The translations under genes were made by a program, and so were the position numbers. This document shows positions 3,083 to 45,378 of a stretch of DNA of 64,000 nt, one piece after another (position 1 is the first letter of the stretch; each line of letters opens with the position of its first letter). The notes under the pieces are model-generated. The model did not search any database. It saw only the letters and a program-made list of their open reading frames with translations, and had not been told where the DNA came from. Source of the stretch: a virus; the UHGV virus genome UHGV-0171999; one strand, written 5' to 3'.

Positions 3083-3250
3083 ATGTCAGATAAGATTTGT
3101 GTTGTCTGTAAAACTCCAATCGATTCTGCATTGGTTGTTGAAACAGACAAAGGTCCTGTACATCCTGGGCCTTGCTATAATTACATTAAAGAACTACCAG
3201 TTTCAGAAAGTTCGGAAGAACAATTAAATGAAACACAACTTTTGCTATAG
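3083..3250 (+). CDS. small Cys-pair protein, uvsY.-2-like (55 aa)
   Basis: ATG with GAGGAG RBS; CVVC...PGPC pattern suggests a zinc ribbon; below the ORF-track size cutoff. Confidence 0.45.
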   Translation: MSDKICVVCKTPIDSALVVETDKGPVHPGPCYNYIKELPVSESSEEQLNETQLLL

Positions 3251-3273
3251 TGTGACCTTTAGTCTATAGTTTT

Positions 3274-3300
3274 GGCCCTTCCTTTTTGGTTGGGCCTTTT
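3274..3300. terminator. stem-loop (GGCCC/GGGCC) plus T-run between convergent uvsY operon and uvsW.1
   Basis: 5-bp GC stem, 13-nt loop, followed by TTTTTT on the plus strand. Confidence 0.45.
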
Positions 3301-3305
3301 TTAAT

Positions 3306-3536
3306 TTAAAAGCTTTCTTCTACTTCATCGTCTGAATCTTCTAATTCAGCTCTTTTTCCTGCCAAAGCATCTCTGACTGAGATGTCATCAGTATCTTTTA
3401 ATTCAGTTTCTTTAACTCTTTTCTTGTAATAAGCTTCAAGTTCTTCTAGACCTTCTAATGTTTGACAAGAGGCAATTTTACCCATAAATTCATCAATAGA
3501 AGCTTCATAAAGAAATTGTTTAAATTCTAGTAACAT
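3306..3536 (-). CDS. uvsW.1: uvsW.1-like small acidic protein
   Basis: 76 aa from the first ATG (ORF-track start at 3548 is TTG); GGAG RBS 6 nt upstream; C-terminus acidic. Confidence 0.55.
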   Translation of the reverse strand: MLLEFKQFLYEASIDEFMGKIASCQTLEGLEELEAYYKKRVKETELKDTDDISVRDALAGKRAELEDSDDEVEESF

Positions 3537-3561
3537 CTTTTTCTCCAAAGGGCCGAAGCCC

Positions 3562-4254
3562 TTATAAATTAACTGTTTTTCTAAGTATTCTTAGTTTGTA
3601 CATTGATAATCCAGTAGCTTTAGAAGCGTCTTTCATACATTTATATTTAACACCATTTACTTCTATAGGTTTAGCAGCTGGGTTATTAGCTCCTGAATTA
3701 TCTGGCATGTTATCTTTAATTTTCTGAATAGATTTAGCGGAATGTTTCCTTCCGTACATGCCGTTATTTTTACCCGATTGATTGATCGAATGTAATCTTT
3801 TAGCTTCTTCAGTCCATTTCGTTGGGTTCATTCTTTTAGTTTTACTAATTTTATTTCCCCATGTAATTGGACGACTTTTCATGAGTTTTGACATATATTG
3901 TTTATGTTCTTCCGTATGGTGTTTTCCGTAAAATGGATTACCTTCGCCGGATTGAAGTTCTGCCATTTTACGACGTTCCCATGCGTAAGATTTATTGACG
4001 TGTCTTTCATGAGTATTTGAATTCATTCCCATACATATAACGGCTTTAATTATACCATAATGGTTTGGATGAATTTTAGCTAAAAGTTTATGGGCTATAA
4101 AATGTTCTTCAGCCGTTAGTTCTACTAAATTACACTTATCATTTGTACCACCCATGCATCTAGGAATTATATGATGAGTTTCAGTGTATCCATTAAGGCG
4201 AGCCCGATTCTGGGCTCTATTAATTAAATTATCATATATTAATTTATAATTCAA
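3562..4254 (-). CDS. free-standing HNH homing endonuclease with NUMOD3-like repeats
   Basis: 230 aa; HNH core THHIIPRCMGGTNDKCNLVELTAEEHFIAHK; repeated G..YGRKHS/GKHHTEEHK motifs; no ATG in frame before the HNH motif, TTG start overlaps uvsW stop. Confidence 0.75.
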   Translation of the reverse strand: MNYKLIYDNLINRAQNRARLNGYTETHHIIPRCMGGTNDKCNLVELTAEEHFIAHKLLAKIHPNHYGIIKAVICMGMNSNTHERHVNKSYAWERRKMAELQSGEGNPFYGKHHTEEHKQYMSKLMKSRPITWGNKISKTKRMNPTKWTEEAKRLHSINQSGKNNGMYGRKHSAKSIQKIKDNMPDNSGANNPAAKPIEVNGVKYKCMKDASKATGLSMYKLRILRKTVNL

Positions 4255-5759
4255 AGTTTAACCTCTTTCATCACATAATTGAACTTCTCATCAGCATAAC
4301 GCTGAATACGATCAAGTCCATGTTTTAAAAGATAGTTTAAATGCGAGTATTTTTTAGAAGATGTTTTTGATTTAGAAACTACGCCCGCGTTATCTATGAG
4401 GTCCCAGACTGTTGCGATTGTTTTAGAACCATGCTTACGTAATACACGACCGATTGTTTGTAATACAATGATTTTTGATTTAACACCGTGTGCTAAAACA
4501 ACGTGATGCAGATTTTTAACTGAAATACCAGTAGAAAATACACCATAACTAGCTACTATAATTATTCCTTTACCGTTTTCAGCTAAGGTTTTCATTATAT
4601 TGCGGGTTTCGGTATCAACTTCCCCTGATACGTAATAAACTTTATCGTATTCATTTTTAATTAAATCGAAAATAGCTTTACCGTGCGATACGTGTTTAAA
4701 CATGACAAAAGCGTTTTCATCTTTTTGCGCAAGCTTAATAGCTAATTTAGCGATCCATTTATTTCTTTTACTGAGTCCAGTAATAATTTTTATTTCTTCT
4801 TGGTAAGTTTTTCCCTTTAATTTAGTAGTGAACTCATCGGGATAGCGAAGAAAAATACTATTAATTTTTAACTCAGTTACTTGTCCATCTTCCATTAATT
4901 TAGAAGTCGTTACTGGCTTAAATATTTCACCAAACATTCCAACATACTGCATGATATTAGCTTTGCCATCACGTAATGAACCCGATAGACCAAATTTGAA
5001 CATGCAGTTATTTAAACCTGATATGATAGATGAAATACTTTTTCCTGTAGCAAGATGACATTCATCATTCATCATCATTCCAAATTGTGAGAACCATTCT
5101 TTTGGTTGTTTTACTACAGTTTGCCATGTACCAACAACGACTGGTGCATCATTTTTATATTTATCATCTTTTGATGCTCCACCGCCAATTTTCTTTATCA
5201 TTGCGTGACTGAATAAACGATAATCAACAAAGTCATCAGCCATCTGAGTTGTTAAAGCAGTTGTTGGAACAATGATAAGAATTTTACCTTCATAATTTTC
5301 CAAATAATACCGAGCGAGCAAAGCTTGAATTAAAGATTTACCTGCGGATGTTGGAAGATTAAGAATTCTACGACGATTAACTAATCCTTCGAACACTGCA
5401 TCTTTTTGATACCAATGTGGTTCAATTCTTTTATTTCCTGAATAGATTTCTAACTTAGAAAGCCATTCATCGAAATCTTTTCTTGATAATTCTTCTTTTT
5501 CGTTAATCTGTGGGTCAATCCAGGCTTTATAGCCAAAGTTATCACAGAACTTTTTAATTTGCCCGACTAAGCCGAATGGAAGAAGACGATTATAATCTAA
5601 AAGACGGATTCGTCCATCCCAGTTGCCATATCTGAAGCGAGGATTAAACCTATATCCATCGGCCTCAAACGAAAAGAAATCTCTTAATTCGTGGAACGTG
5701 CTCTCTTCACAATCGATGCGTACATGACTGAAGTCGTGAAAATGTACTTTAATATCCAT
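4251..5759 (-). CDS. uvsW: UvsW SF2 DNA/RNA helicase
   Basis: 502 aa; Walker A LPTSAGKS; DEAH-type box MNDECH; length matches T4 UvsW. Confidence 0.9.
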   Translation of the reverse strand: MDIKVHFHDFSHVRIDCEESTFHELRDFFSFEADGYRFNPRFRYGNWDGRIRLLDYNRLLPFGLVGQIKKFCDNFGYKAWIDPQINEKEELSRKDFDEWLSKLEIYSGNKRIEPHWYQKDAVFEGLVNRRRILNLPTSAGKSLIQALLARYYLENYEGKILIIVPTTALTTQMADDFVDYRLFSHAMIKKIGGGASKDDKYKNDAPVVVGTWQTVVKQPKEWFSQFGMMMNDECHLATGKSISSIISGLNNCMFKFGLSGSLRDGKANIMQYVGMFGEIFKPVTTSKLMEDGQVTELKINSIFLRYPDEFTTKLKGKTYQEEIKIITGLSKRNKWIAKLAIKLAQKDENAFVMFKHVSHGKAIFDLIKNEYDKVYYVSGEVDTETRNIMKTLAENGKGIIIVASYGVFSTGISVKNLHHVVLAHGVKSKIIVLQTIGRVLRKHGSKTIATVWDLIDNAGVVSKSKTSSKKYSHLNYLLKHGLDRIQRYADEKFNYVMKEVKL

Positions 5760-5761
5760 AA

Positions 5762-6379
5762 TTATGCCTTACTAAATTTGCCTTTAGAGTCTCTTTTCAT
5801 GAGACGACCTTTAATAAATCCGTCGGGAATAATACCGTCTGGTTGTATTAATTTATTTATTACGCCATTATTGACCCAAAAAGTTCCTGTGGTAGTCGGT
5901 TTAACTTTACATCCTTTTCTAGACTTTCTATTAGGATGAACCATCCCTTTTACAAATCCTTCTGGAACAAGTTCTCCAGGTTTAATAAAAATATTTTTAG
6001 TTCCATTAGTGTAACAAGTTTTACCTAATACCGTTCCTGGTGAGTTTTCAAATCTTTTAGCGGAAGATTCTTTCATCTTTGCTATAACCTCTGTAGTCAT
6101 AACAATTCCACCAATTCCACCGGGTTTCATATTATAATAATTTTTGCTTTTTATTAGTTCAGGAGTTATAATTTCTTCTTCATACATGTACGCTTCTTCG
6201 GAAGTTTTAAACTCTTTTAGTATTTTTCTAGAGAAATTGTTTTCACCATATTTCTTTATAGCCTGCTGAATTGCCTTACCGGAACCAAGGTAACCATCAT
6301 TCAAGTCGTCAGTAGAATGCTTTCCTATATACTTTTTACCGTTTATTAGATTTGTTGTTTCATATACAAAGTGGTACAT
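5762..6379 (-). CDS. GIY-YIG homing endonuclease, seg family (segD/segE-like)
   Basis: 205 aa; N-terminal GIY-YIG module VYETTNLINGKKYIGKH; stop lies 2 nt before the uvsW ATG; between inh and uvsW. Confidence 0.8.
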   Translation of the reverse strand: MYHFVYETTNLINGKKYIGKHSTDDLNDGYLGSGKAIQQAIKKYGENNFSRKILKEFKTSEEAYMYEEEIITPELIKSKNYYNMKPGGIGGIVMTTEVIAKMKESSAKRFENSPGTVLGKTCYTNGTKNIFIKPGELVPEGFVKGMVHPNRKSRKGCKVKPTTTGTFWVNNGVINKLIQPDGIIPDGFIKGRLMKRDSKGKFSKA

Positions 6380-6407
6380 ACTATTTTCCGAGTAATAAAT
6401 ATATCTA

Positions 6408-6415
6408 TATTTATA
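6408..6415 (-). promoter_or_regulatory. late promoter core TATAAATA (minus strand) upstream of the seg-like gene
   Basis: Plus strand TATTTATA 29 nt upstream of the seg ATG. Confidence 0.45.
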
Positions 6416-6428
6416 CTGAGGAAATATT

Positions 6429-7109
6429 ATGATAGATAAAGATTATATTGCAGAGCTGAAGGCTCTTGATGATAATAAAGAAGCTAAGGCTAAATTAGCT
6501 GAATATGCTGAACAGTTTGGTATAAAGGTCAAAAAGAATAAATCTTTTGATAATATCGTTATTGATATTGAAGAAGCCCTCCAGAAGCTCGCTAGTGAAC
6601 CTATGCCAGAGACTGATGGGTTATCTATTAAAGACTTAATTGATGCTGCTGATGCCGCAGACGGATTAAAATATGACGATGAAGAAGTCAATCCAGAAGC
6701 AGCACTTCTGATTGATTCTCCGGTTAAATCTGACATTAAAATTGAAGTAGTAGAAATGGATAAAATTCCTGAAAATACCGATGTTTTGATTGAAGATACT
6801 CCCTTTGTTGAAGAAAAGTTTGAACAGGCTGTAGCTGAGATTATTGAATCTGAAAAGACGTCTGTATTTACTCTTCCGGAAAACTTTAGTCCGAATCTTC
6901 AGCTGATTGGAAAAAATCCAGGATTCTGTACTGTTCCTTGGTGGATTTACCAGTGGATTGCTGAAACCCCGGATTGGAAATCTCACCCAACTAGTTTTGA
7001 ACATGCGTCGGCACACCAAACTTTATTTAGCTTAATTTATTACATTAATCGCGACGGATCAGTTCTAATTCGTGAAACACGCAATTCTTCTTTCGTAACA
7101 TTAAAATAA
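6429..7109 (+). CDS. inh: Inh, inhibitor of prohead protease
   Basis: 226 aa, acidic, immediately upstream of hoc as in T4. Confidence 0.8.
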   Translation: MIDKDYIAELKALDDNKEAKAKLAEYAEQFGIKVKKNKSFDNIVIDIEEALQKLASEPMPETDGLSIKDLIDAADAADGLKYDDEEVNPEAALLIDSPVKSDIKIEVVEMDKIPENTDVLIEDTPFVEEKFEQAVAEIIESEKTSVFTLPENFSPNLQLIGKNPGFCTVPWWIYQWIAETPDWKSHPTSFEHASAHQTLFSLIYYINRDGSVLIRETRNSSFVTLK

Positions 7110-11145: not shown

Positions 11146-11172
11146 TGCGCTTTCCTTTTGGTTTATATGATT

Positions 11173-11180
11173 TATTTATA
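11173..11180 (-). promoter_or_regulatory. late promoter core TATAAATA for gene 24
   Basis: Plus-strand TATTTATA 28 nt upstream of the gp24 ATG. Confidence 0.55.
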
Positions 11181-11196
11181 CCATAAAAACAACTAA

Positions 11197-11214
11197 AGGG
11201 ACCCGAAGGTCCCT
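11197..11214 (-). terminator. terminator hairpin after gene 23
   Basis: AGGGACC-CGAA-GGTCCCT hairpin; T-rich on the minus strand downstream. Confidence 0.6.
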
Positions 11215-11228
11215 TAAATCGTCAAAGA

Positions 11229-44856: not shown

Positions 44857-44931
44857 CTCCGTGTAGCTCAATGGCAGAGCGATCGCCTGTTAAGCGATTG
44901 GTTATAGGTTCGAATCCTATCACGTCCGCCA
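44857..44931 (+). tRNA. tRNA-like gene with anticodon GUU (Asn-type), acceptor stem only 4 of 7 bp paired
   Basis: D-arm GCTC-AATGGCA-GAGC, anticodon arm ATCGC-CTGTTAA-GCGAT, T-arm ATAGG-TTCGAAT-CCTAT, 3' GCCA; 5' CTCCGTG pairs poorly with 3' CACGTCC. Confidence 0.45.
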
Positions 44932-44935
44932 AATC

Positions 44936-45011
44936 CGAGGCATAGCTCAGAAGGAAGAGCAAGGACCTTCTAAGTCCTAGGTCGTAGGTTCGATCCCTAC
45001 TGCCTCGACCA
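44936..45011 (+). tRNA. tRNA-Arg (anticodon UCU), CCA encoded
   Basis: Acceptor CGAGGCA/TGCCTCG, anticodon loop CTTCTAA, T-loop TTCGATC. Confidence 0.8.
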
Positions 45012-45027
45012 ATTAAGTGAGGAAAAT

Positions 45028-45378
45028 ATGAAAGGTAATGTTTATTTAGTAGTTCATGATTTAACGTTCTATTTTAATCACAATGACACTGTTATTTCTG
45101 AACGTGTAATTAATTTGCTTTATCAGCATGCAGATTATGTTTATGTCGAAAACGAATATGGTCATTGGCAATTTCTCAAAAATCGTTCATTTGGTTTAGA
45201 TGGTTACGAATACTTTGAACGTAAAGACCTTTTAGATAAAATTCCGTTATCTACACAATATCAAAATCATAAGTCTTTATATAAATGCCGTCCAATTCGA
45301 AATGCTGAATCCGCGTATGAAGCAATTGATTTATGGCGTAAACGCCGTGAACAGATTGATTCTTTAAAAGAATATTAA
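45028..45378 (+). CDS. hypothetical protein within the tRNA region
   Basis: 116 aa ORF with GAGG RBS directly after tRNA-Arg. Confidence 0.6.
   Translation: MKGNVYLVVHDLTFYFNHNDTVISERVINLLYQHADYVYVENEYGHWQFLKNRSFGLDGYEYFERKDLLDKIPLSTQYQNHKSLYKCRPIRNAESAYEAIDLWRKRREQIDSLKEY

Follow-up and report, generated by a model that had tools for sequence, protein, structure and literature searches.

A stretch of DNA of 64,000 nucleotides (nt) from the virus genome UHGV-0171999, called here the window, carries an intact gene between the helicase gene uvsW and its neighbour uvsW.1. This gene is probably a free-standing homing endonuclease gene of the MobE type that would spread by intronless homing; its site, the 3' end of uvsW, is specific to the lineage. 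It is not new, being already annotated in T6 and in dozens of other genomes, and its class has been studied thoroughly. The details added here are incremental: a displaced and replaced uvsW tail, recurrent non-AUG start codons with compensating Shine-Dalgarno (SD) sequences, an internal hairpin in common with mobE, and a divergent uvsW tract linked to the element. They leave the current understanding of homing endonucleases unchanged. All coordinates are those of the window unless a locus is named, and the genes and motifs described below between 3306 and 6415 lie on its minus strand.

The endonuclease gene, its product and its distribution

The gene is an uninterrupted open reading frame (ORF) of 230 codons at 3562..4254 (a coding sequence (CDS) of 693 nt including the stop), with neither a frameshift nor an internal stop. 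Its assignment to the HNH homing endonucleases of the MobE family draws on the ORF list, on PHROG 655, on similarity to T4 MobE, on annotated relatives and on the ratio of non-synonymous to synonymous change (dN/dS). An earlier note, made from the letters of the window alone, had described a 230-aa ORF with an HNH core and repeated NUMOD3-like motifs, and both the ORF and the motifs were confirmed; the coordinate 3549 at which it began the gene takes in a downstream hairpin, and the limit of the ORF is 3562. It had also claimed that no ATG precedes the catalytic motif and that translation must start at a TTG overlapping the uvsW stop codon, which agrees with what we found. The first in-frame ATG is codon 34, past the catalytic His27/His28, and a TAA lies in frame two codons 5' of the TTG; the TTG is therefore the only canonical start that retains the catalytic motif. 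This TTG (4252..4254) shares two bases with the uvsW stop TGA (4251..4253), so that the junction reads TTGA, and relative to uvsW the endonuclease is read in the -1 frame. No paralogue of the endonuclease was found within the window.

The protein aligned to PHROG 655, 'homing endonuclease', over residues 1-217 (E 3.9e-60), and in BLASTP it was 42% identical to T4 MobE over 181 aa (E 8e-34), with about 70% identity over the first 60 aa. The putative HNH catalytic core (aa 23-58, Y-E-x-HH-IIP-x-C-x-GG...N...L...EH..AH; 4081..4188) was recognised by sequence, and the structural model is compatible with it. In an alignment of 59 homologues, H28, N42, H51 and H55 were invariant and H27 was invariant or nearly so; the family profile built from the same alignment matched the McrA HNH core over aa 23-54 (E 4.3e-4); and the AlphaFold model (overall pLDDT 88.5) placed a strand at 25-28, a second strand at 43-46 and a helix at 48-61, these elements having a pLDDT of about 96. 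Pfam NUMOD3 (PF07460, E 7.6e-14) matched two stretches, a repeat at aa 94-122 (3889..3975) and a second one in the C-terminal domain. The C-terminus was modelled as a small strand/helix domain, within which aa 157-216 (3607..3786) form a predicted I-TevI-like DNA-binding domain consisting of a NUMOD3 helix and a helix-turn-helix. Pfam gave a weak match to the I-TevI DNA-binding domain here, and the corresponding structure, PDB 1I3J, was matched at E 0.006 with the single sequence and at E 6.6e-8 with the family profile. In the Foldseek search of the PDB the I-TevI domain was the top match (probability 1.00); since no Foldseek PDB match, to I-TevI or to HNH, reached E<=0.001, the domain assignment rests on the sequence profiles. 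The predicted architecture is an N-terminal HNH nuclease, followed by NUMOD3 linkers and an I-TevI-like helix-turn-helix.

The distribution of the gene is patchy. We found a 661-nt core with 95-99% identity in 49 records, all of T4-like phages, including T6, Yersinia phage PST, ACG-C40 and HY03. In most of these records the same CDS of 693 nt is annotated, frequently under the name 'homing endonuclease' (RefSeq YP_010067330.1 in T6); the labels 'group I intron endonuclease', 'mobD' and 'hypothetical protein' used in several of them are inaccurate. An exact match to the protein exists in a large protein collection. T4 itself lacks the gene at this site, in line with the earlier note's reading of the locus as a mobile-element insertion, and no T4 or T2 record was among the 49. 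The site was empty at an otherwise 96-98% identical locus in T4, in phage LH2 and in most other Tequatrovirus records. Because at least 500 records matched the flanks at 95% identity or more, against 49 carriers, the gene is present in about one tenth or fewer of the Tequatrovirus-like relatives. The same polymorphism was seen at the same site in Jiaodavirus, where pzk-kv6-1 carries the gene and JD18 does not. Altogether we recovered 12 lineages of the endonuclease, with 54-100% amino acid identity to the window copy; their sources (Tequatrovirus, Jiaodavirus, Dhakavirus, a Morganella phage and metagenomic contigs) include at least four named phage groups. Each occupies the uvsW|uvsW.1 junction and has a start codon that overlaps with the stop of uvsW. 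Phage RPN226, which lacks segE, gave the closest match to the HNH region. Our literature searches found no paper that names or studies the endonuclease at this site: a 2010 review of the mobile elements of T4 names 15 endonucleases, of which none is at uvsW|uvsW.1 (PMC2988022), and the UFV-AREG1 genome paper lists both flanking 'helicase' CDSs and does not comment on the gene between them.

Pairwise comparison of seven intact Tequatrovirus copies revealed up to 24 synonymous against 5 non-synonymous differences (dN/dS 0.03-0.07), showing that the gene is under strong purifying selection. Decay, which the earlier note had considered as a way in which its reading could fail, was thus not seen in the window copy. 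It was seen in phage BF15 (locus L014, 387-1085), where a 4-nt deletion at ORF nt ~477 shifts the frame and the annotated product has 195 aa with a scrambled C-terminus. Active copies beside an occasional dead one fit a cycling homing element. The same low dN/dS would also be expected of a domesticated nuclease, kept not for homing but for a benefit to the phage such as the exclusion of competitor markers, the provision of recombinogenic ends near uvsW or the amplification of loci. The long-term occupation of one site in several genera favours this explanation too, and SegB has been reported to benefit T6 by amplifying anti-defence loci (PMC13096335). We nevertheless regard domestication as unlikely, since the restriction to 49 of at least 500 Tequatrovirus-like records, the frameshift in BF15 and the existence of endonuclease-free recombinants (see below) fit a cycling selfish element, and the exclusion of markers through homing hardly counts as a mechanism in its own right.

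Insertion into the last codons of uvsW and the linked tract

The invaded gene, uvsW (4251..5759), encodes a helicase of 502 aa (Pfam UvsW_N, E 8e-44; ResIII; Helicase_C), and the downstream uvsW.1 (3306..3536) encodes a protein of 76 aa (Pfam UvsW-1, E 1.7e-30; 98% identity to T4) whose true ATG at 3536 is preceded by GGAG. Alignment of the window with T4 and the endonuclease-free LH2 defined a net insertion of 689 bp (4265..3577). Homology on the uvsW.1 side (98%) resumed at AAAACAGTTAATTTATAA GGGCTTCGGCCC. In LH2, these 18 nt are the last five uvsW codons and the stop, and the end of T4 uvsW matches them apart from an extra A that belongs to a compression error of the reference. In the window they encode the end of the endonuclease, KTVNL*; the remnant of the original uvsW 3' end (AAA ACA GTT AAT TTA TAA, 3562..3579) has become the endonuclease tail. 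The window uvsW now ends MKEVKL*, with a replacement 3' end (AAA GAG GTT AAA CTT TGA, KEVKL*; 4251..4268) that, according to the alignment with T4, LH2 and T6, was supplied by the element. As read from these alignments, the element is shown to have entered the last uvsW codons, displaced five of them and brought substitutes that include a GAGG ribosome-binding site. Since the element supplies substitute codons, UvsW keeps its full length. The earlier note had placed the gene exactly between uvsW and uvsW.1; it does lie between the two, and the insertion is inside the last uvsW codons, not at the boundary. The two copies of the uvsW tail form a degenerate direct repeat with 13 of 24 matching positions in the window, 16 of 24 in PSD2002 and 21 of 24 in the Dhakavirus-like L021, compared with an average of 6.5 matches for random 24-mers.

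The hairpin reported after the endonuclease stop is present and folds as predicted (AAGGGC-UUCG-GCCCUU, with a UUCG tetraloop; 3548..3563), overlapping the last two bases of the stop codon. It does not belong to the element: it must be ancestral, since it is found in the uvsW-uvsW.1 spacer of T4 and LH2, which lack the endonuclease. In the other genera there is no UUCG hairpin, and the endonuclease stop is located at or within a few nucleotides of the uvsW.1 ATG, overlapping it (ATGA) in most cases. The T4 reference NC_000866 (locus L004, 4175-4190, corresponding to about 3548-3566 of the window) reads AATTTAATAAG--CTTCGGCCC at this position, where LH2, T6 and the window read AATTTATAAGGGCTTCGGCCC. 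The T4 reading, TAAG--CTTCGGCCC, is a known compression-type error; as it removes the uvsW stop and fuses uvsW with uvsW.1, the T4 reference still annotates a fused uvsW of 587 aa.

Upstream of the insertion, the 3' part of uvsW differs markedly between the window and T4. Of 83 differences in uvsW, 46 fell within the last 172 nt (4251..4422), and a 42-nt patch in this tract (4341..4382) was almost unalignable; the uvsW.1 side was 98% identical. The tract was 96.5-98.8% identical to the window in exactly the 49 carriers, 89-90% identical in four endonuclease-free phages (LH2 and OES_C-1/2/3), and at most 77.6% identical in other records among the matches listed. A donor of the tract was not found, the next best full-length match being 77.6% among the matches listed. 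LH2 was of the window type at informative sites 172 to 94 and of the T4 type from site 88 to the end, and it has no endonuclease gene. LH2 (locus L008, 2500-2690) and OES_C-1/2/3 combine the carrier-type 42-nt patch with a T4-type last ~88 nt of uvsW, i.e., they are clean mosaics that switch 94-88 nt from the uvsW stop.

A similar pattern was found in Jiaodavirus. Between pzk-kv6-1 and JD18, 32 of the 45 uvsW differences were in the last 175 nt and were mostly synonymous, with 13 differences in the first 1328 nt of uvsW and 4 in the 243 nt of uvsW.1. This comparison was made gene by gene; a whole-locus MAFFT alignment misplaced the insertion gap. In both genera the tract begins just 3' of the codons for helicase motif VI, 172-175 nt before the uvsW stop. 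As evidence from populations of genomes, the tract pattern is consistent with co-conversion of the flank and with polymorphisms that confer immunity, and the boundary common to the two genera may mark a cleavage site near the helicase motif VI codons.

Start codon, transcription and internal hairpin

The close and distant homologues all begin with MNY..IY at the position of the TTG. The homologous start codon was ATG in six, TTG in five and GTG in one of the 12 lineages, and it was TTG in all eight Tequatrovirus copies examined. We conclude that the TTG start is real, and its overlap with the uvsW stop suggests coupled, throttled translation. Comparison of the lineages pointed to a putative SD sequence, GAGG (4262..4265), which is located 7 nt 5' of the TTG and is provided by the replacement uvsW codons Glu-Val. 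The motifs GAGG or AGGTGG were present 6-7 nt upstream in four of the five TTG lineages versus one of the seven ATG/GTG lineages, an association that is suggestive only and so tells against a firm interpretation, since the 12 lineages are related and not phylogenetically independent. In the TTG lineages, uvsW codons for Lys-Glu-Val or Lys-Gln-Val provide the SD. The strength of the start codon and that of the SD appear to be traded off through the last codons of the host gene. Folding of the region around the TTG gave no convincing structure that would sequester the SD (z -1.5; the centroid structure is unpaired there).

A promoter scan revealed no consensus late or sigma-70-like promoter in a position to serve the endonuclease ORF. 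Within 3200-6500 this strand has a single consensus T4 late promoter, TATAAATA (6408..6415); it is upstream of segE and is the likely source of late transcripts running through segE, uvsW, the endonuclease gene and uvsW.1. A match to this consensus at seven of eight positions, TATAAATT (4248..4241), was rejected as the gene's own promoter, as it lies inside the first codons (codons 3-5) and cannot serve the ORF. If active, it would give transcripts that lack the TTG and possibly serve uvsW.1.

With no ATG ahead of the catalytic motif, no promoter of its own and a decayed copy in BF15, the gene might be taken for a silenced relic that has lost its ATG, is essentially untranslated and is becoming a pseudogene. 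This is very unlikely, given the purifying selection across copies and the invariance of the catalytic residues. Moreover, all eight Tequatrovirus copies retain the TTG, as do four further, diverged lineages, in most cases preceded by a strong SD at the ideal distance, and an unused ORF would not keep orthologues of 54-70% identity intact. An intron-encoded endonuclease (the label 'group I intron endonuclease' in several records; a weak TIGR01453 match of 30 bits, the cutoff being 56) or a fusion of UvsW with the HNH protein through frameshifting where the two ORFs overlap (the -1 frame) can practically be dismissed, because no Rfam family, intron or other, matched 3200-4600 at E<=1, phages without the endonuclease have uvsW and uvsW.1 as two complete genes, each on its own, there is no slippery heptamer, the overlap sequence varies between lineages, and all homologues including MobE start with MNY as independent ORFs.

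Folding of the coding sequence of what is probably a homing endonuclease gene revealed a GC-rich hairpin close to its 5' end (GAGCCC-AGAAUC-GGGCUC, ORF nt 38-55; 4200..4217). It is the positional counterpart of the internal terminator of mobE, whose stem-loop was shown experimentally to be a weak intrinsic terminator (Wilson & Edgell 2009, PMC2790892). We analysed 13 genes, namely the 12 lineages of the uvsW site and T4 mobE. In 12 of them the most stable 28-nt window of the ~690-nt ORF was located at ORF nt 25-65. The stems vary between lineages in sequence, loop size and codon phase. With stems in differing registers and codon phases, a MAFFT alignment of this region was unusable for counting covariation, and we used the position of the best hairpin and synonymous recoding as controls instead. 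Synonymous recodings that fold as well made up at most 0.8% in 11 of the 13 genes, 4% in L021 and 7.4% for the window copy. Two relatives that have their own intergenic ribosome-binding site lack the internal hairpin. By these controls, the hairpin is under selection across the uvsW-site lineage. Since most copies have no U tract, it may not be a terminator at all, and it could be a device acting at the RNA level, e.g., by controlling reinitiation at the weak start, mRNA processing or mRNA stability.

Proposed mode of spread and comparison with known systems

Taken together, these observations suggest the following scheme. The endonuclease gene would be read from uvsW transcripts, having no promoter of its own. 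Ribosomes that terminate on uvsW would restart at the UUG, resulting in low-level translation, and the hairpin at ORF nt 38-55 would damp expression further, as the internal terminator does in mobE. During mixed infection, phages without the gene, such as T4, would have their uvsW 3' region nicked or cut by the enzyme, and repair from the carrier genome would transfer the gene along with ~172 nt of neighbouring uvsW sequence. The densely substituted tract of the carriers probably protects them from self-cleavage. The arrangement of a stop-overlapping, often non-AUG start and a hairpin ~35 nt into the gene may be a throttling module specific to HNH homing endonucleases that ride on host-gene translation, i.e., mobE and the uvsW-site lineage. 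That such a module, a hairpin that is not a terminator and a cleavage site at the tract boundary all hold together is a tentative proposal, which we consider possible but doubtful as a whole.

Several observations weigh against parts of this interpretation. The Pfam HNH match scored 16.2 bits, under the cutoff of 21.4 bits, and the structure searches gave no significant HNH match. For the window copy alone, the excess stability of the internal hairpin is marginal (0.074), and no U tract follows the hairpin in the uvsW-site lineage. Within the divergent uvsW tract, the densest substitutions are at different places in the two genera, and a Klebsiella carrier retains T4-type sequence at the 42-nt patch. 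The tract could equally be the fossil of a single acquisition from a distant donor, with a crossover set by local homology near motif VI.

The gene upstream of uvsW in the window is also a homing endonuclease gene. It encodes a SegE-type GIY-YIG protein of 205 aa (5762..6379; Pfam SegE_GIY-YIG, E 6e-9), and since it lies immediately upstream, uvsW is flanked by two different homing endonuclease genes. Elsewhere in the window segD is missing at 11158-11217 (60 nt versus 789 in T4) and segC at ~36965 (a direct junction versus 557 nt in T4), and the tRNA region at 44882-45377 has 496 nt versus 1085 nt including segB in T4; the endonuclease complement thus differs from that of T4 at four or more sites within the 64 kb. 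On the other side of the locus, a strong hairpin with A/T runs alongside (GGCCC...GGGCC, z -3.6; 3274-3296) is located between the converging uvsW.1 and uvsY.-2 and corresponds to a conserved bidirectional terminator reported for T4-like phages.

The uvsW-site endonuclease is probably a further well-defined example of intronless homing among the T-even phages, with T6 carrying the gene and T4 and T2 not among the carriers. It illustrates how the 3' end of an important host gene can be invaded harmlessly by a selfish gene, which gives substitutes for the codons it displaces and borrows the old codons, stop and hairpin. It also extends the mobE-type layout of no promoter, an overlapping start and an internal hairpin to a second lineage, with clear selection at the nucleotide level.

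The closest known system is T4 MobE, encoded between nrdA and nrdB. The two proteins share PHROG 655 and NUMOD3 repeats, while the C-terminus of the uvsW-site endonuclease is I-TevI-like and does not align to MobE past aa 168. T4 mobE is promoterless, and its AUG overlaps the nrdA stop (PMC2790892, PMC2988022). Likewise, no promoter of its own was found in the sequence of the uvsW-site gene, whose start codon, UUG in place of AUG, overlaps the stop of uvsW. In both genes a GC-rich hairpin occupies the same position near the 5' end of the coding sequence; that of the uvsW-site gene has a shorter stem and no U tract. MobE nicks nrdB of T2 in an HNH-dependent manner (PMC2790892). Here, in contrast, the insertion site and presumed target is the uvsW 3' end, and the final codons of the host gene have been both replaced and duplicated by the element.

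Insertions into host coding sequence are known from Aeh1 mobE in nrdA and from T4 mobA in gene 39/60 (PMC2988022). As in these cases, the element entered a coding region and not an intergenic spacer; in contrast to them, only the last five codons were displaced and substitutes were supplied. A relative with 35% identity lies inside nrdA of phage ZQ3 (Mosigvirus; locus L006, 1031-4190), where it splits the gene into two 'subunit alpha' CDSs, resembling the Aeh1 mobE case in the literature.

With I-TevI the endonuclease shares the sequence and fold of the C-terminal 60-80 residues (NUMOD3 helix and helix-turn-helix), whereas the nuclease of I-TevI is of the GIY-YIG type and its gene lies in the td intron, and the enzyme described here has a predicted HNH nuclease and a free-standing gene. 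The order of an HNH nuclease followed by an extended DNA-binding region is that of I-HmuI, the HNH nicking endonuclease of Bacillus phage SPO1 (PDB 1U3E). Finally, T4 SegE, encoded between hoc.1/inh and uvsW, is the other homing endonuclease that flanks uvsW. It belongs to the GIY-YIG and not the HNH family, and it homes without an intron and with co-conversion of its flanks (PMC2330249).

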